Assembly: GCA_963814985.1 (NCBI GenBank)
Contig: CAWFFV010000034.1
Span: 110,749-174,748 of the forward strand
Direction of reading: 5' to 3'
Source of the DNA: an uncultured Chloroflexia bacterium
GTDB lineage: Bacteria; Chloroflexota; Ktedonobacteria; Ktedonobacterales; Ktedonobacteraceae
DNA: 64,000 bases
Positions 26,569 through 45,650 of the stretch are shown here, in pieces; position 1 is the first letter of the stretch, and every line of letters begins with the position of its first letter. Below the pieces are notes generated by a model. It did not search any database. It was not told the DNA's origin and saw only the letters and a program-made list of their open reading frames with translations. The position numbers and the translations under genes were made by a program.

Positions 26569-27447
26569 TTATTTAGACTGATATTGCTCAAGATAACGAA
26601 TGACTTCTCGCGTTAGTTGACTGGGTGTTGAGGCACCTGCGGTGACAGCGATGCGTTGCTTACCCTGGAGCCATTCTGCTTTTAATTGGGAGAGATCATC
26701 GATGCGAATTGCCGGGACGTCTGCCAATTCTTCGGATACCTGTACGAGGCGATTGGTATTGTTACTACGGGAATCGCCAACAACAATGGTCAGATCAGCA
26801 CCTCTGGCCTGTGCGGCTACCGCCTCCTGACGTGTCTGTGTGGCAGCACAAATATCAACGTGGACCTCTGTCTGAGGGTAGCGCTCTTTGATGTACTGGA
26901 TGACCCGCTGAGTGTCCCACTTCGAGAGTGTGGTTTGCGTGGAAACGGCAAGTTGCTTTTCTTGCTCTGGCGTGAGCATCAACTCATCCACATCAGCTTC
27001 CGTTTCAATCAGACTGACATGTCCAGGTACCTCTCCCATGACTCCTTCTGGTTCCGGGTGTCCCTTTTTCCCGACGTAGAGGATATAGTACCCCTTTGCC
27101 ACCAGAGCACGCACAAGATCATGGGTCACAGTAACATCGGGGCAAGTGGCATCGATACAATGCAATCCGCGCTCCTGTGCCCGGCGTTTTACCTGTGGAG
27201 AAACACCATGAGCAGTAAAGATCACAGTCCCTTCCTGGACCTGTTCCAGAATAGTGGCCCTATCAGGACCATCCAGCGTCACCACCCCCATCCTGGTCAG
27301 CTCATCGATGGCATGACGATTATGAATAATCTGTCCGATGATATAGATAGGACGTGGTAACATATCATCTTTCGCAGCCTGTCGTACTATCTGTAGTGCA
27401 TCAACAACACCATAACAATAGCCACGGGGAGATATCTTTATGACTTC
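26569..27447 (-). CDS. ispH: 4-hydroxy-3-methylbut-2-enyl diphosphate reductase (IspH/LytB).
   Basis: The three conserved Cys contexts are present (GYCYGV, ATCPDVT, ICAATQTRQ) and the sequence is IspH-like throughout. Confidence 0.92.
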   Translation of the reverse strand, partial: EVIKISPRGYCYGVVDALQIVRQAAKDDMLPRPIYIIGQIIHNRHAIDELTRMGVVTLDGPDRATILEQVQEGTVIFTAHGVSPQVKRRAQERGLHCIDATCPDVTVTHDLVRALVAKGYYILYVGKKGHPEPEGVMGEVPGHVSLIETEADVDELMLTPEQEKQLAVSTQTTLSKWDTQRVIQYIKERYPQTEVHVDICAATQTRQEAVAAQARGADLTIVVGDSRSNNTNRLVQVSEELADVPAIRIDDLSQLKAEWLQGKQRIAVTAGASTPSQLTREVIRYLEQYQSK

Positions 27448-27591
27448 CATCGATTCCTCATACAGGTACTCTCTGTCTATCTCAATACAGTTTATAGAGA
27501 GACCCAATCATTCAGGCTCCCTTTTCTCCCTAATTTGCTCTAAGGTGGAAGTCTCTTCCACCCTAGGGACATATTGAGTGTATCACATCGA

Positions 27592-28035
27592 TCAAGATGC
27601 CTTTGCCTCAGTTCTTACCAGGAGATGACGCAGGTCACCAGGCGTATAGAGGCAAATTTCTGGGAGCAGACCTACCAATTCCTCGACAGAAGTGGATGGA
27701 GCTAAATCAAATATCAAGAGTGGCATACGTTGCCCCTCACGTCCCTTAGCAATACTTGCTGCTGTCAACAAATTTGTTGATGATAGAGGTACATTAATAA
27801 GTAGTTGTACGTGAGGAAGGAGATAGGAAAGCATGAGAGGTGTATCTTCTTCGTAGATATACTTCATCCCCATCCGTCGCAATAATTTCATATAGGGATA
27901 TCGTTGCTCTTGTGGTCCGATCAATAAGGCCGAACGACCTTGCAGACCACCAAGGCAAGCACCTGCGATAGACACTATCTCCGGTGCTCTATACTGCATT
28001 GGGAGTTCTCCTATAGGGTATAAATAAGGAAACAT
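27592..28035 (-). CDS. Short NAD(P)-binding Rossmann protein resembling the central domain of glutamyl-tRNA reductase (HemA); likely truncated.
   Basis: IAGACLGGLQGRSALLIG is a GxGxxG-type motif. RMPLLIFDLAPSTSVEELVGLLPEICLYTPGDL matches the HemA ...iDlavPRdve...v.ly.iDdL block. Confidence 0.35.
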   Translation of the reverse strand: MFPYLYPIGELPMQYRAPEIVSIAGACLGGLQGRSALLIGPQEQRYPYMKLLRRMGMKYIYEEDTPLMLSYLLPHVQLLINVPLSSTNLLTAASIAKGREGQRMPLLIFDLAPSTSVEELVGLLPEICLYTPGDLRHLLVRTEAKAS

Positions 28036-28154
28036 TGTATCTCTTCATTATACTATAATACATTGTAGTTATGTATCATCAGGTAAGTGCTGTATTTTTT
28101 GTGGGGAGAGCAGTAGGGTCCTCGTCTCGCATCTGACCAAAGGTAATATTTCCC

Positions 28155-28183
28155 TTGACATATATGAATAGTCTGTCTATACT
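28155..28183 (+). promoter_or_regulatory. Near-consensus sigma-70-type promoter (TTGACA-17 bp-TATACT) for the aroF leader.
   Basis: The -35 element TTGACA lies at 28155-28160, the 17-nt spacer follows, and the -10 element TATACT lies at 28178-28183. The leader peptide ORF starts about 60 nt downstream. Confidence 0.5.
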
Positions 28184-28244
28184 TGATATAAAGATAGGTA
28201 GTGAGACAAACCCAACCAGAAATCACAGAAGGTTGAATATATTT

Positions 28245-28307
28245 ATGCTCAGTTACCAGACCAACCAACGCTATAGCTTTTATTACTGGTTTAGCCCTCC
28301 AGCATGA
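28245..28307 (+). CDS. Attenuator leader peptide of 20 aa: MLSYQTNQRYSFYYWFSPPA (Phe-Tyr-Tyr-Trp-Phe run).
   Basis: A short ORF with a GAAGG RBS about 12 nt upstream and five consecutive aromatic codons (TTT TAT TAC TGG TTT). It is followed by alternative hairpins and a terminator immediately before the DAHP synthase start. Confidence 0.6.
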   Translation: MLSYQTNQRYSFYYWFSPPA

Positions 28308-28358
28308 TGGTGGGTCTTTTGGACTGAGCAAGAATTTGACCACCAGCATGCTGGGGAA

Positions 28359-28385
28359 GCAGAGGAAAAACCTCTGCTTTTTTAT
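28359..28385 (+). terminator. Attenuator terminator hairpin (GCAGAGG-aaaaac-CCTCTGC + TTTTTTA), 25 nt upstream of the aroF start.
   Basis: A GC stem plus U-tract lie in the 5' leader between the promoter and leader peptide and the aroF RBS (AGAGAGGA at 28393). Confidence 0.6.
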
Positions 28386-28409
28386 TTCAAAAAAGAGAGG
28401 ACTTTTTCA

Positions 28410-29477
28410 ATGATCATTCTGCTTCACAGTCAGGCTACCCATGAAGAGCGAGTCCAGTTAATGAACCTTGTGAGCCGGATCACTGGTAGCCAGCGGCCTA
28501 CGACAAAAATGGCTACGCACGAAGTTATTGCTCTGGAGACTAGCCAGCTGGATACGGAGGCACAAGGTGTCCTCAGCCAGCAAAGAGCCGTCGAACGCTT
28601 GATCTCCATCAAGACCTCATATCAGCTAGTCAGCAGAGCTTTCCAGGCCGAGAGTAGTCGTATTGTGGTGGGCAGCGACCATGACTGCAATCCTGTGAGC
28701 ATTGGAGGTGTCTCTACCTCCCCAGTCATCATGGCAGGACCATGCGCGGTTGAGAACAGAGAGCAGTTGCTTTCTACTGCCCATGCAGTCGCAGCAGCCG
28801 GTGCTCAGGTTTTGCGCGGCGGAGCCTTCAAGCCGCGTACCTCTCCCTACCAGTTCCAGGGACTTGGCATTGAAGGCCTCCAGCATCTTGCCCAGGCACG
28901 TCAGGAAACCGGGCTACCGGTGATTACCGAAGTGATGGAACCTGCTCTGGTAGATACTGTCGCGCAATATGCTGACATCTTGCAGATCGGTAGTCGCAAC
29001 ATGCAGAATTTCGCGCTCTTACTTGCCGTAGGCCGCCAGAGTCAGAAGCGTCCCGTGTTGCTCAAACGTGGGCTGGCCGCCACCATTGATGAGTTTTTGT
29101 TAGCCGCAGAATACATTGTTTCTGCGGGTAATCCAAATGTTATCCTCTGTGAACGCGGCATTCGCAGTTTCGACCCACAGACCCGTAATGTCCTGGATCT
29201 CTCATGTGTACCATTATTACATGAGATGACTCACCTGCCCATTATTGTAGATCCCAGTCACGCGACTGGTCGCCGCGAACTTGTTCCGACCATGTCTCGT
29301 GCGAGCATCGCTGCCGAAGCCGATGGACTGATTATCGAAGTTCATCCCCATCCCGATAGTGCCCTGTGCGATGGACGTCAGTCAATTACCCCCGAACAGT
29401 TACAAAAGATTGTCCATGAAACACATATGCTTGCACGCATGATGAGAGAAGAGGAGAACATGCCGCTGATAGCCTGA
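28410..29477 (+). CDS. aroF: 3-deoxy-7-phosphoheptulonate (DAHP) synthase, class I-beta, with an N-terminal ferredoxin-like regulatory domain.
   Basis: The KDO8PS/DAHPS I-beta core (GPCAVE...[12 protein letters not shown]...KRG...DPSHA) is preceded by an N-terminal regulatory extension of about 95 aa. Confidence 0.88.
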
Positions 29478-29648
29478 AGAAAACGCAAGAGAGCATATCG
29501 AAAGACTCAGGCCAGTCTGTGTATAGAAAGACCATACAAGGCCTATCGACTCACTCTATTGAGTATGATATACTCTGTTGTACGTAGTGAAAGACTTAGT
29601 ACTATTCGTACTGTGGTGGAAAGAGACCAGAGGCTTTGAGGTGTCATT

Positions 29649-30221
29649 ATGCCAACACGTATTATTATTGCAGATGACGAAACCATCCAGCGCATGGATC
29701 TGAGAGATGTGCTAACCAAGCAAGGCTATCTTGTAGTCGGTGAAGCTGGAGATGGTCTGAGTGCCGTCAACCTGGCCCGTGAGATACGACCAGATCTGGT
29801 TATTATGGATATTCGTATGCCCGACATGGACGGCATCGCTGCCGCAGAAACTCTTACGCAGGAAAAAATTGCACCAGTGTTGTTGCTCACGGCCTTCGGA
29901 GACCAGCCACTTGTTGAGCGTGCTAAGGAAGCAGGCGTGGTGAACTATATTGTGAAACCATTGCGCGAAAGCGAGGTTGCACCAGCAATAGAGGTCGCTC
30001 TGGCACGCTATAACGAGTTTCGTGCTATGGAAGAGAAAGCTCGGAGTCTGGCCGAACAGTTAGAGACCCGCAAAATCGTTGAGCGTGCCAAAGGGCTATT
30101 GATGGAAAAGCAGGGGCTTTCCGAGCAGGAAGCGTTCCGCAAGATTCAAAAAGCCAGTATGAACAATCGCAAATCAATGCGAGAGGTAGCAGAAGCGATT
30201 TTACTGACCAACGAAATGTAA
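29649..30221 (+). CDS. Response regulator with ANTAR RNA-binding output domain (AmiR/NasT family).
   Basis: A receiver domain (IIIADDE...DLVIMDIRMPDMDG) is followed by the ANTAR motif (IVERAKGLLMEKQGLSEQEAFRKIQKASMNNRKSMREVAEAIL). Confidence 0.88.
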   Translation: MPTRIIIADDETIQRMDLRDVLTKQGYLVVGEAGDGLSAVNLAREIRPDLVIMDIRMPDMDGIAAAETLTQEKIAPVLLLTAFGDQPLVERAKEAGVVNYIVKPLRESEVAPAIEVALARYNEFRAMEEKARSLAEQLETRKIVERAKGLLMEKQGLSEQEAFRKIQKASMNNRKSMREVAEAILLTNEM

Positions 30222-30298: not shown

Positions 30299-31237
30299 AT
30301 GGTACCGGGGACGAGTACAGAAAAGACAGTGACCATTGTCGGCATTCGTTTTCGTCCAGCAGGGCGTATTTATTACTTTGACCCTCAGGGACAATCCTTT
30401 GGGACAGGCCAGTATGTTCTAGTTGAGACCGTGCGTGGACTAGAAGCCGGGCGTGTCGTGATTGCTTCTAAGAAGGTCAAGGAGAGTGATCTAAGTGATC
30501 CTCTCAAACCGGTGCTGCGTCTGGCTACCGAAGACGAATTGCGTATGATGCTTTCCTTCAAAAGTAAAGAGAAGGAAGCTCTGGTTCGCTGTGCTGAACG
30601 CATTAGCCAGCATAGCCTGCCCATGAAGCTCGTCGAATCAGAGTATACGTTTGATGGGAGTCGGTTGACTTTCTATTTTACGGCTGATGAGCGAGTTGAC
30701 TTCCGAATACTGGTACGTGATCTGGCAGCTACTTTTCGTACACGTATTGAACTGCGCCAGATTGGTGCCCGCGACCAGGCCAAGTTGCAAGGTGGAGTTG
30801 GTCCTTGCGGGAAAACGTTATGTTGTAGTTCGTGGATTACTGATTTCGGCATTGTCTCAATCAAAATGGCGAAGGAACAAGGTCTCCCCCTCAATCCTTC
30901 AAAAATCTCTGGCGTATGTGGTCGCCTTATGTGCTGTCTCTCCTATGAAAACGACAACTATGTCCAGGCGAAACAACAGATGCCACAGATCGGGACATTC
31001 TTCACAACTCCCAGTGGACAGGGCAAAGTTGTCTCGGTGAATGTACCACAAAATTCGGTCGAAGTGATGCTGGAAAGTGGCGTAACAATCCAGGTACCTG
31101 TCAACGAACAGCAAGAGAAGAAGAGTCAGGGCGGGTGTGGCAGTTGTGGTGTCAAAGGTGAGGGAGGGAGCAGTGGAGGAGGTGGCAGTTGTGGCAGCGG
31201 AGGGTGTGGATCTTGCGGCATCAAGAAGAGATTCTAA
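30299..31237 (+). CDS. ricT: PSP1-domain protein (RicT/YaaT family) with a Gly/Cys-rich C-terminal tail.
   Basis: The PSP1 C-terminal core GPCGKTLCCSSWITDF...GVCGRLMCCLSYE is present. Confidence 0.82.
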   Translation: MVPGTSTEKTVTIVGIRFRPAGRIYYFDPQGQSFGTGQYVLVETVRGLEAGRVVIASKKVKESDLSDPLKPVLRLATEDELRMMLSFKSKEKEALVRCAERISQHSLPMKLVESEYTFDGSRLTFYFTADERVDFRILVRDLAATFRTRIELRQIGARDQAKLQGGVGPCGKTLCCSSWITDFGIVSIKMAKEQGLPLNPSKISGVCGRLMCCLSYENDNYVQAKQQMPQIGTFFTTPSGQGKVVSVNVPQNSVEVMLESGVTIQVPVNEQQEKKSQGGCGSCGVKGEGGSSGGGGSCGSGGCGSCGIKKRF

Positions 31238-33303: not shown

Positions 33304-34495
33304 TTGGTTGTTGATGACTATCAATTGATCTTGCCCCAACCATATCATGCTATTGCAACAGAAGATGTCGAGATCTACTACCATGCCTATCAAGATGAGC
33401 TTCAGCTATCCGAGCAAACGGTAGGAGAGCGCCTCCTCGCCGTCAAGAGAGATATCCAACAAACGCAGACATATCATCAGACCTACGAGGAGCTTGTCAT
33501 TGGCGCTCGCTTAGCCTGGCGTAACGCTACTCGCTGTATTGGTCGCTTGAACTGGCAATTACTGCAAATGCGAGATATGCGCCATCTTACTTCTGCAAAT
33601 GACATATTTCAGGAATTGCTTGAGCATATTCAACTGAGTACCAATGCAGGAAAAATTCGTCCCATCGTGACAGTTTTTGCTCCACAGAGGCCTGGTCAGC
33701 CTGGTCTACGGATCTTGGAATAGTCAGTTGATCCGCTACGCCGGATATCGCTTAGCGAATGGTGACTGCCTGGGTGATCCGTTGGAGATAGATTTTACGA
33801 ATGCTGCATTGCATCTCGGCTGGAAGGGGGCAGGAACAGCTTTTGATATTCTTCCGTTGATCATTCAACTTCCTGGACAGAAGCCTCAGTTCTTTGAAAT
33901 ACCCCCCCAATATGTACTCGAAGTCCCTATTGTTCATCCAGACTATGCCTGGTTTGCCGAACTTGGTCTTAAATGGTATGCATTTCCTGCCATATCAAAC
34001 ATGTGCCTGGAGATAGGGGGTATACGATATACATCGGCTCCTTTTAGCGGATGGTATCTCGAAACAGAAATCGCTACACGCAATTTTGCAGATACAAACC
34101 GCTATAATATGCTGCCAACTATTGCCCAGAAGATGGGCTTGAATGTGCGCTCTGAGCGTTCACTCTGGAAAGATCAGGCGTTAGTAGAGCTTAATAAAGC
34201 AGTTCTTCATTCATATGCCAAAAAGCATGTCACGATAATTGACCATCATACCGCTGCCCGTCAATTCATTTTACATGAAGAACGAGAGCAAAATGCCGGC
34301 CGCAAGACACCAACTGACTGGAGATGGATTGTTCCCCCTCTCTCTCCCTCAACAATGTCTGTTTATCATCGTAGCTATGAGTTTGTCCAGTTGAAGCCAA
34401 ACTGGTTTTATCAACCCGTTGGATGGAAATGTCCCGTAGAGGACTCGTTACAATCTGGGCACGCATGCCCGGCAGGATTGGAGAAACGCGTGTGA
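33304..34495 (+). CDS. nos: Bacterial nitric-oxide synthase oxygenase domain (bNOS), with a 1-nt frameshift near 33695-33705.
   Basis: The heme-thiolate motif AWRNATRCIGRLNWQ is present, along with WNSQLIRYAGY, WYAFPAISNMCLEIGG and IIDHHTAARQF...WRWIVPPLSPS, all colinear with bacterial NOS. The ORFs 33304..33723 and 33677..34495 overlap in different frames. Confidence 0.85.
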
Positions 34496-35295
34496 AGATC
34501 AATATAACAGTATGTGAACTCCCTGACGAGCGCTCCGCATTTCTTCGTGCGTGGGAAGGACTCGTAGAGCATGTTCACGATAAAGCAAGTCAGATCGTGA
34601 TTCTCCCAGAGATGCCTTTCTCTGCCTGGTTTGCGGCAGATCCACAATTTCACGCGTCGACATGGCAAGATGCTGTTGAAGCGCATGAGTCCTGGATGAG
34701 TCGCCTGCAAGAGCTTGCACCCGCAAGTGTTCTGAGTAGTCGTCCCGTCTATCATGGACAGAAACGCCTCAATGAAGGTTTTCTCTGGGAAAACGAGCGT
34801 GAGTATGGATATCGACCTGTTCACCAAAAATACTATTTGCCCAATGAGGCCGGATGTTGGGAGGCATCCTGGTATCAGCAAGGCGATGGAATGTTTGTAC
34901 CATTAGAATATCAAAATATCTCTCTTGGTATGCTTATCTGCACAGAATTGTGGTCTCCAACGCATGCGCAACAGTATGGGCAAGCCGGAGTTCACCTGCT
35001 TGTTGTCCCTCGTGCAACCGAACGCGCAACAGTAGAAAAGTGGATCGTGGGTGGGCAGGCAGCGGCCATTATTGCAGGCGCGTTCTGTGTGTCCTCAAAC
35101 CGGGTCAGTACCCAGGAAAAAGGGGGAGCATTCGGAGGAGGCGGTTGGATCATCGGGCCAGATGGAGATATCCTGGGCCTGACATCCCAGGATGAGCCTT
35201 TTATCACGATAGAGATTGACCGGCACGCAGCCATACGGGCCAAAGACACCTACCCTTGTTCAGTATTCATCAGGGATAGAGATGCCAGTCGATAG
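34492..35295 (+). CDS. Carbon-nitrogen hydrolase family protein (nitrilase/amidase superfamily), translationally coupled to nos.
   Basis: The catalytic-triad contexts VILPEMPF (Glu), K within QKYYL, and LGMLICTELW (Cys) are present. A GTG start at 34492 overlaps the nos stop (GTGTGA). Confidence 0.7.
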   Translation: MKINITVCELPDERSAFLRAWEGLVEHVHDKASQIVILPEMPFSAWFAADPQFHASTWQDAVEAHESWMSRLQELAPASVLSSRPVYHGQKRLNEGFLWENEREYGYRPVHQKYYLPNEAGCWEASWYQQGDGMFVPLEYQNISLGMLICTELWSPTHAQQYGQAGVHLLVVPRATERATVEKWIVGGQAAAIIAGAFCVSSNRVSTQEKGGAFGGGGWIIGPDGDILGLTSQDEPFITIEIDRHAAIRAKDTYPCSVFIRDRDASR

Positions 35296-45610: not shown

Positions 45611-45650
45611 AAAAGCGCCTCTCAAAGTATTTTGAGAGGCGCTTTTTTTA
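45611..45650 (+). terminator. Strong rho-independent terminator (bidirectional: A-tract / 13-bp stem / T-tract).
   Basis: AAAA-AGCGCCTCTCAAA-gtat-TTTGAGAGGCGCT-TTTTTTT. Confidence 0.8.

Follow-up and report, generated by a model that had tools for sequence, protein, structure and literature searches.

What sets the expression of a gene for 3-deoxy-7-phosphoheptulonate (DAHP) synthase that is preceded by a short aromatic open reading frame (ORF) and an intrinsic terminator? This question is raised by a 64,000-nucleotide stretch of contig CAWFFV010000034.1 from an uncultured Chloroflexia bacterium of the family Ktedonobacteraceae (hereafter the window, meaning the whole stretch analysed, numbered from its first letter), in which a leader with these features lies directly upstream of a DAHP synthase gene (aroF) on the forward strand. 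An original prediction, made from the letters of the window, had read this leader as a textbook attenuator with mutually exclusive 1:2, 2:3 and 3:4 stems; we find that this interpretation holds in substance, in that DAHP synthase is preceded by an aromatic leader-peptide attenuator, but fails in its structural detail, the 2:3 alternative. The comparative evidence below indicates that the leader very probably works by ribosome-mediated attenuation sensing the charging of tRNA-Phe, tRNA-Tyr and tRNA-Trp, and that it is likely to be a transcription attenuator of the DAHP synthase gene belonging to a conserved and uncatalogued leader family.

At the window locus, the expected parts stand in the expected order. 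A sigma-70-type promoter, TTGACA-17 nt-TATACT (28155-28183, with the hexamers at 28155-28160 and 28178-28183), has 11/12 consensus matches, as near to consensus as had been predicted; it is the top-scoring promoter-like site within 27000-30000, and TTGACA-17-TATAAT stands at the equivalent position in eight related loci (L001, L003-L006, L008-L010). After a 5' untranslated region (UTR) of ~55 nt follows ORF1 (28245-28307, ATG at 28245, stop codon UGA at 28305-28307), a leader peptide of 20 codons that reads MLSYQTNQRYSFYYWFSPPA exactly as predicted, with aromatic residues at 8/20 codons, five of them consecutive (UUU UAU UAC UGG UUU, F-Y-Y-W-F, 28278-28292) and ending 4 nt before the foot of a long hairpin. 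The putatively regulated gene (28410-29477) encodes a type I-beta DAHP synthase with an N-terminal extension and matches PF00793 (E=4e-77), NF006421 (434.8 bits, cutoff 335) and TIGR01361 (375.6 bits, cutoff 267.75), which bears out its assignment; a Shine-Dalgarno-like sequence, AGAGAGGA (28394-28401), can be read 8 nt before its start codon.

Runs of at least five aromatic codons are expected 0.46 times in the six frames of the 64-kb window and are seen three times, and the five-codon run is by itself mildly improbable. On this number the leader might be a chance mini-ORF beside an ordinary hairpin and terminator, with no regulation at all; this reading is contradicted by the retention of the unit in ~100 loci from several phyla-level lineages, always 5' of DAHP synthase, and we regard its probability as negligible. 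Nor can the hairpin be the terminator of a convergent upstream gene: the upstream ORF (27592-28035, without a family match in Pfam or NCBIfam) is on the minus strand, divergent as had been stated, and is not conserved in relatives. Since the upstream genes of the window are not conserved, the leader travels with DAHP synthase, and it is because the whole unit recurs before DAHP synthase in relatives that we take the leader to be more than chance, the comparative evidence being decisive here.

To collect these relatives, the DAHP synthase protein was searched against one genome per species, which gave 80 loci, the eleven closest of which (67-74% identity to the window DAHP synthase) belong to Ktedonobacteria or unclassified Chloroflexota. 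The motif GCAGAGG-N(3-10)-CCTCTGC-T(4+) lies upstream of the gene in 54/80 loci; in another 8 the 7-bp core is unchanged and its outer pair differs in a compensated way (G-C, C-G or an additional pair), giving a total of ~62/80. Nearly all of these ~62 loci carry an aromatic mini-ORF that ends ..Pro-Ala-TGA 44-56 nt before the terminator, so that the conserved aromatic mini-ORFs which the original prediction had proposed looking for before DAHP synthase genes of relatives do exist. Together with metagenome loci, mini-ORFs ending in ..P-A-UGA were found at ~50 genomic and at least ~30 metagenome loci, with aromatic runs kept in ~80. Those of the Ktedonobacteria type have ~20 codons (..SFYYWFSPPA, ..SFWYWFSPPA, ..FYYYFYFSPPA), and those of GC-rich Chloroflexota and of contigs labelled Dormibacterota or other phyla have 11 (MNRFFYFRCPA, MSTFFFYRTPA, MTHWYFYSSPA, MKHFYFYRIPA, MTTYFWYPSPA). 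The aromatic runs seen include FYYWF, FWYWF, FYYYFYF, YWYYF, WYWYWY, FYF, FFYF, WFYF, FFFY and YFWY, written with varied codons; because aromatic identity is kept while codons and order vary, selection appears to act on the peptide or its decoding and not on the RNA sequence. That one such run could integrate the supply of Phe, Tyr and Trp in leader-peptide control of DAHP synthase through an intrinsic terminator, as originally proposed, has thus gained comparative support.

We defined the family by an aromatic mini-ORF whose ..P-A-UGA end lies inside the 5' arm of a covarying hairpin, with GCAGAGG-loop-CCUCUGC-U6 placed 44-56 nt further on, and all of these features are present in the window leader, which aligns with 51 genomic members and with 15 members of the Ktedonobacteria type. 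A search of Rfam with 27900-28600 of the window (E <= 10) gave no match at gathering score, the best being an unrelated small RNA at 24.4 bits against a threshold of 48, and when 18 loci were searched at gathering score, no family (Trp, Phe, His, Leu and Thr leaders included) was matched on the leaders of 15 related loci. The family is therefore ready for use in annotation pipelines, being large, easily recognised and without a matching Rfam model. Two more distant loci differ from the family in both leader RNA and terminator (L078 and L079, of which one carries the label Methylomirabilota and the second comes from an unclassified bacterium), and their aromatic mini-ORFs contain ..PPA (RFYFYYFAHVCPPA.. 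and ..FAFFYFAEVRPPA*).

What structure does the leader RNA take? The minimum free energy fold of 28190-28410 (-63.1 kcal/mol, z = -3.5, lower than all 200 shuffles) is one long nested hairpin with the terminator immediately after it. The outer stem, P1, has its 5' arm at 28297-28313 (CUCCAGCAUG.UGGUGG), which holds the last ORF1 codons, the ORF1 stop and the start of a second mini-ORF, and its 3' arm at 28340-28356 (CCACCA.CAUGCUGGGG), joined to the terminator by a linker of 0 nt; the lower stem pairs 28297-28306 with 28347-28356 and the upper stem 28308-28313 with 28340-28345 (16 bp). The apical part (28314-28339) contains an inner stem-loop, P2, with ACUGAGCA at 28323-28330 and an A-rich internal loop on the 3' side. 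The two segments that had been described as alternative stems, CCAGCATGATGGTGG and CCACCAGCATGCTGG, are in fact the two arms of P1 and pair with each other, and they lie at 28299-28313 and 28340-28354 and not at 28297-28311 and 28335-28349. Lower P1 is well supported by comparison, as 96% of cells are paired in a 52-sequence alignment, compensatory changes occur in 5/10 pairs, and the covariation score is reached by 0/500 shuffles; the stem reads CCCGGCAUGA:UCGUGCCGGG in GC-rich members and CCAGCAUG:CAUGCUGG in the Ktedonobacteria type. With a ribosome placed at the first aromatic codon, a gap of 0-2 nt separates the base of P1 from that of the terminator stem in 47-60 of 71 non-redundant leaders.

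The terminator itself (28357-28383) consists of a 9-bp stem, AAGCAGAGG (28357-28365) and CCUCUGCUU (28371-28379), around the loop AAAAA, with its U-run at 28378-28383. The predicted stem and T-run before aroF are present, although the loop has 5 nt and not 6 and the gap from the U-run to the ATG of the DAHP synthase gene is 26 nt and not 25. As a GC-rich 9-bp stem followed by U6 between a leader ORF and a structural gene, this element is predicted to terminate transcription. A consensus terminator scan did not list the hairpin at 28357-28383; the G-U-tolerant stem extension of the scan may swallow the U-run, and its negatives should not be relied on for stems after G-runs. We found no further leader-terminator units elsewhere in the window.

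The 7-bp core, GCAGAGG/CCUCUGC (28359-28377), is identical across otherwise divergent leaders at 62/80 loci, mostly together with the UUUUUUGUUU that follows it. In the 52-sequence alignment the core is invariant and the outermost pairs alone vary, with pairing retained; the loops, of 4-8 nt, have no conserved positions. Ordinary terminators are under no constraint on sequence. A metagenome scan for the exact hairpin returned at least 120 contigs, and among the matches listed ~36 are DAHP synthase leaders and ~80 lie in unrelated contexts, so that the exact hairpin is enriched at DAHP synthase leaders without being exclusive to them.

An invariant core could serve as a binding site for a protein, and a candidate is close at hand, as an ANTAR response regulator gene follows DAHP synthase in the window (29649-30221) and in 14 Ktedonobacteria-type loci, which might point to protein-mediated antitermination. 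The targets of ANTAR proteins are two tandem short hairpins with hexanucleotide loops that overlap a terminator. Tandem hexaloop hairpins were not apparent by eye, and no ANTAR-motif search was run; what is seen is one long nested hairpin and terminator loops of 4-8 nt. Moreover, outside the Ktedonobacteria-type loci the ANTAR gene is unlinked to the leader within the flanks examined, and antitermination by an ANTAR protein would leave the conserved run of aromatic codons unexplained, so we give this explanation very little credence.

Where, then, does translation of the leader end? The stop codon of ORF1 is located within the 5' arm of P1 and, since the last ORF1 codon is GCA, reads AUGA. In the window, this AUG opens ORF2 (AUG AUG GUG GGU CUU UUG GAC UGA, 7 codons, 28304-28327), which overlaps the ORF1 stop and ends in the apical region. 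An AUG overlaps the ORF1 stop in 46/49 loci, and in 43 of them ORF2 has 6-7 codons and ends 26-34 nt before the terminator. All three stop codons are found at the end of ORF2 (TGA at 23 loci, TAG at 19, TAA at 5), and the third frame is mostly open. In the 3/49 loci that have UUGA or CUGA in place of AUGA the ORF2 stop is absent too, and in L086, L107, L156, L085, L132, L007 and L012 there is no stop after Pro-Ala or its equivalent and ORF1 continues in frame to an apical stop. The feature shared by the family is therefore that translation ends in the apical region, which is reached either by a single extended ORF1 or by the coupled pair of ORF1 and ORF2.

The conserved ..P-A and UGA at the end of nearly all mini-ORFs would also be expected if the nascent peptide were itself the sensor, with free aromatic amino acids arresting the ribosome at aromatic-x-x-Pro-Ala-UGA in the manner of TnaC. 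It speaks for such a sensor that the two loci with a different leader RNA still have ..PPA after the aromatic run, and that UGGUUUAGCCCUCCAGCAUGAUGGUGGG, a segment of 28 nt (28287-28314), is the same in 16 Ktedonobacteria-type leaders except for one substitution in one locus. The conservation of Pro-Ala-UGA is, however, explained by RNA pairing, because the same nucleotides form the 5' arm of P1 and have covarying partners; some lineages lack the stop after Pro-Ala altogether, and arrest of the inducer type would act in the wrong direction for a biosynthetic gene unless its logic were inverted. A peptide sensor seems to us highly improbable, and we return to attenuation by ribosome position on the aromatic codons. 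The conservation of UGGUUUAGCCCUCCAGCAUGAUGGUGGG beyond the needs of pairing probably reflects overlapping constraints, namely the codons and stop of ORF1, the start of ORF2 and a pair of helices.

A second helix is peculiar to part of the family. In leaders of the Ktedonobacteria type, the opening codons of ORF1, AUGCUCAG (conserved Met-Leu-Ser), are complementary to the apical CUGAGCA, and in the window the start-proximal segment UGCUCAGU (28246-28253) forms an 8-bp helix with 28323-28330 in the consensus fold once the hairpin is masked. A Ktedonobacteria-like subgroup keeps this start-to-apical pairing with another sequence (UGCCGCC:GGCGGCA). The apical GGCUGAGCAAAAA is near-invariant in the 16 Ktedonobacteria-type leaders, and the N-terminal half of the peptide varies freely.

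If ribosome position is the signal, is it converted into an antiterminator, as in the classical trp and phe leaders? In that scheme, a stalled ribosome would mask the 5' arm of P1, the freed 3' arm would form an antiterminator with part of the terminator, and the terminator would be allowed to form once a ribosome stood at the final stop or once P1 had closed again after ribosome release. For the window, a fold in which the terminator is forbidden is less stable by 9.4-13.2 kcal/mol at every ribosome position tried. Equilibrium folding is nevertheless uninformative on this point, because it also fails for the genuine Escherichia coli trpL, giving a terminator probability of 0.80 in all states and missing the antiterminator, so that absence of an antiterminator in such folds proves little. 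We therefore replaced it by a test in which the RNA made before the 3' arm of the terminator exists is folded and the 5' arm is examined for prior pairing. This test detects the trpL antiterminator, as pairing rises from 0.08 without a ribosome to 0.38-0.73 when one occupies the Trp codons and is back at 0.08 when it stands at the stop. Applied to 71 leaders of the family, using only the RNA downstream of the ribosome, it gave 5' arm pairing of 0.28 with the ribosome on the first aromatic codon and 0.42-0.47 with it on the last one, against 0.42-0.46 when it stood at the ORF1 stop and 0.48-0.58 when it had reached the apical stop; no stall-specific sequestration of either terminator arm was seen in silico in these 71 leaders. 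Consensus folds (RNAalifold) in which one terminator arm or the other was blocked, both under ribosome masks and in their absence, likewise revealed no conserved alternative helix and no partner for either arm.

Two specific pairings were considered and rejected. Pairing of the aromatic codons with the purine-rich 5' arm of the terminator would have accounted for the invariant stem, but the complementarity does not exceed that of composition-preserving shuffles (mean z = 0.12, 49 leaders), and the helix arises chiefly on codons free of any ribosome, the reverse of the logic needed. The other candidate, pairing of the 3' arm of P1 with the loop and 3' arm of the terminator, has more in its favour. 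In the GC-rich group, outside the Ktedonobacteria type, the sequence GGGUCGUGCC of the P1 3' arm can form a helix with the final GG of the 5' arm together with the loop and CCU, and when the P1 5' arm is masked this pairing wins in L031, L044 and L062 (terminator probability 0.09-0.18); also, terminator loops end in GA in 34/52 leaders, and a leader's own loop beats shuffled ones by a mean of -1.1 kcal/mol (p = 0.011, uncorrected for phylogeny). It is weak in the GC-rich group, however, and its dependence on the ribosome is wrong, as it peaks (0.52) with the ribosome at the apical stop and drops to 0.01 with one on the first aromatic codon; in the window's clade it is 0.00 in all states. In these models, the stall-dependent antiterminator of leader-peptide attenuators is absent, though a kinetic or tertiary alternative may exist, so that the textbook arrangement gives way to a single hairpin, and an attenuator of the classical type is in our judgement unlikely here.

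The lack of an antiterminator in the folding tests would suit a rather different device, similar to that of pyrBI, in which the ribosome translates through the terminator, either after a +1 shift at U-rich hungry codons or by reinitiation at an AUG or GUG in the 3' arm of P1. In the window, the +1 frame has no stop between the aromatic run and a UGA overlapping the AUG of aroF (28411-28413), and in 61/73 leaders this frame stays open beyond the terminator; an ORF starting at the AUG or GUG of the P1 3' arm crosses the terminator in 56/63 leaders (28348-28413 in the window). By a rough estimate, however, ~80% of frames are open by chance in GC-rich leaders, and the +1 frame is closed in 6/20 Ktedonobacteria-like leaders, including sisters of open ones (L003 versus L006, L008 versus L009). 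Pairing with CAUGA by itself places a start codon in the 3' arm, and the overlap with the aroF start, absent in L001, is a coincidence to be expected for one frame in three. Translation through the terminator is thus quite improbable, although we rate it above the peptide and protein sensors discussed earlier.

How could a ribosome on the aromatic codons then reach the terminator? If a ribosome is taken to reach ~12 nt beyond the start of its A-site codon, its leading edge lies ~7 nt before the foot of P1 when it is on the first aromatic codon and ~5 nt inside it when it is on the last. The modelled states suggest that the sole robust difference between them is whether the hairpin beside the terminator is closed or open. 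Attenuation would then proceed as follows. The transcript from the promoter at 28155-28183 would carry ORF1, the P1/P2 hairpin and the terminator in this order. In replete cells, the lead ribosome would pass the aromatic codons, invade P1 and reach the apical stop, through termination and reinitiation at AUGA or within a single ORF; no helix could close around a ribosome ending at that site, P1/P2 would stay unwound, and the 3' arm of P1 would be single-stranded during synthesis of the terminator, so that transcription would stop before aroF. In the Ktedonobacteria type, the start-to-apical helix could keep P1 open behind the ribosome. In cells starved for any of the aromatic aminoacyl-tRNAs, the ribosome would be parked on the aromatic run with its edge at the foot of P1, and P1/P2 would be closed. 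As to the last step, we tentatively suggest, as a possibility only, that a closed hairpin, separated by 0-2 nt from the terminator base and with a ribosome at its foot, may hinder completion of the terminator stem in RNA polymerase and so allow read-through into aroF. More speculative still is the generalisation that the family embodies a widespread design free of antiterminators, in which a clamp hairpin would block termination when closed, a ribosome relayed at AUGA would open the clamp, and the invariant stem would have a second, sequence-specific role as a pause signal or as a contact for a factor or the ribosome.

Several points weigh against this account. We know of no precedent for a closed hairpin of the P1 type blocking termination, and equilibrium folds with ribosome masks leave the terminator formed in nearly every state. 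The AUG of ORF2 is an automatic by-product of GCA-UGA, so that ORF2 could be incidental, its stop limiting stray reinitiation. For an untranslated leader, the closed hairpin predicts constitutive read-through, the opposite of trp superattenuation. Finally, covariation cannot be assessed within the Ktedonobacteria clade, to which the window belongs, because the element is near-invariant there.

Downstream of the leader, the neighbourhood of the window gene is conserved in relatives. DAHP synthase is followed by the ANTAR response regulator and then by a PSP1-domain protein (30299-31237), an order shared by the Ktedonobacteria-type loci L001-L007, L010, L011, L083, L089, L141, L168 and L199, and the ANTAR protein seems to be under unusually strong constraint, because it is 90-95% identical where the DAHP synthases are 67-74% identical. 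In the GC-rich loci L017, L024, L031, L039, L042, L054 and L068, a pair of tRNA genes, tRNA-Arg(GCG) and tRNA-Ser(GCU), lies just 5' of the leader, ~250-1350 nt upstream of the DAHP synthase match and usually on the opposite strand, in conserved synteny. Elsewhere in the window, the ORF at 33677-34495 has a match to the oxygenase domain of nitric oxide synthase (PF02898, E = 1e-112) over profile positions 125-361 only and is partly overlapped by a carbon-nitrogen hydrolase ORF (34423-35295). A very strong 14-bp hairpin at about 45611-45650 (GCGCCUCUCAAAGU..UUUGAGAGGCGC, -23 kcal/mol) has an A-run on one side and a U-run on the other, which gives it the appearance of a bidirectional terminator.

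If attenuation by this leader is real, one leader peptide would read the supply of Phe-, Tyr- and Trp-tRNA jointly at the committed aromatic step, in lineages (Chloroflexota including Ktedonobacteria, contigs labelled Dormibacterota, and others) in which almost no gene regulation has been studied experimentally. Three features depart from the textbook scheme, namely the stop codon in the stem, the apical end-point of translation reached through one or two ORFs, and the invariant terminator abutting the hairpin, and if the closed hairpin truly drives read-through, it would represent a new route from ribosome position to RNA polymerase.

How does the family compare with known systems? A description of such a leader in Chloroflexota was not found in a partial full-text collection, which agrees with the novelty claimed originally, yet the concept is known from Corynebacterium glutamicum aroR; leader-peptide attenuation as such, that of DAHP synthase included, has been described before, and it is the family, its distribution and its architecture that appear to be undescribed. 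The C. glutamicum attenuator probably regulates a DAHP synthase of a subtype other than that of the window. The Phe-Tyr-Phe leader peptide of aroR-aroF is described as raising aroF transcription on Phe limitation (PMC11802643 and PMC7356990, which cite Neshat et al. 2014). As far as these descriptions go, both systems have consecutive aromatic residues before a DAHP synthase gene and ribosome stalling that raises transcription (for the window family, as proposed here), and the Phe-Tyr-Phe triplet of aroR is also the triplet of many window-family members. The likeness is functional, taken from descriptions in the literature and not from sequence, and spans different phyla; nothing similar to the stop in the stem, the overlapping ORF2 or the invariant GCAGAGG terminator is reported for aroR in the portions available.

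The short members of the family have another counterpart. In GC-rich members, the 11-codon mini-ORFs start 12-16 nt after a -10-like TACCGT box, so that their 5' UTR must be very short or absent. They resemble in this the leaderless leader peptides of ~10 amino acids of Deinococcus deserti, for which an aromatic or DAHP synthase example is not mentioned (PMC4007540), whereas the window member, with its longer 5' UTR, does not.

T-box leaders pursue the same goal, coupling tRNA charging to a terminator before the same enzyme family, but they bind uncharged tRNA directly and have no leader peptide. They precede the DAHP synthase orthologues of three Firmicutes loci (L040, L072 and L077; RF00230, 122-127 bits), and RF00230 has no match in 27900-28600 of the window. 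In pyrBI, there is no antiterminator hairpin, the position of the ribosome relative to RNA polymerase decides on the terminator, and the leader ORF runs through it; in the window family, ORF1 and ORF2 come to an end 28-34 nt short of the terminator. With E. coli trpL and pheL, the window shares the series of promoter, mini-ORF with cognate codons, intrinsic terminator and biosynthetic gene, and the position of the lead ribosome as the presumed signal. The trpL and pheL leaders, however, fold into mutually exclusive 1:2, 2:3 and 3:4 hairpins with the regulatory codons inside segment 1, whereas in the window family the codons lie just 5' of a single nested hairpin that shares no bases with the terminator.

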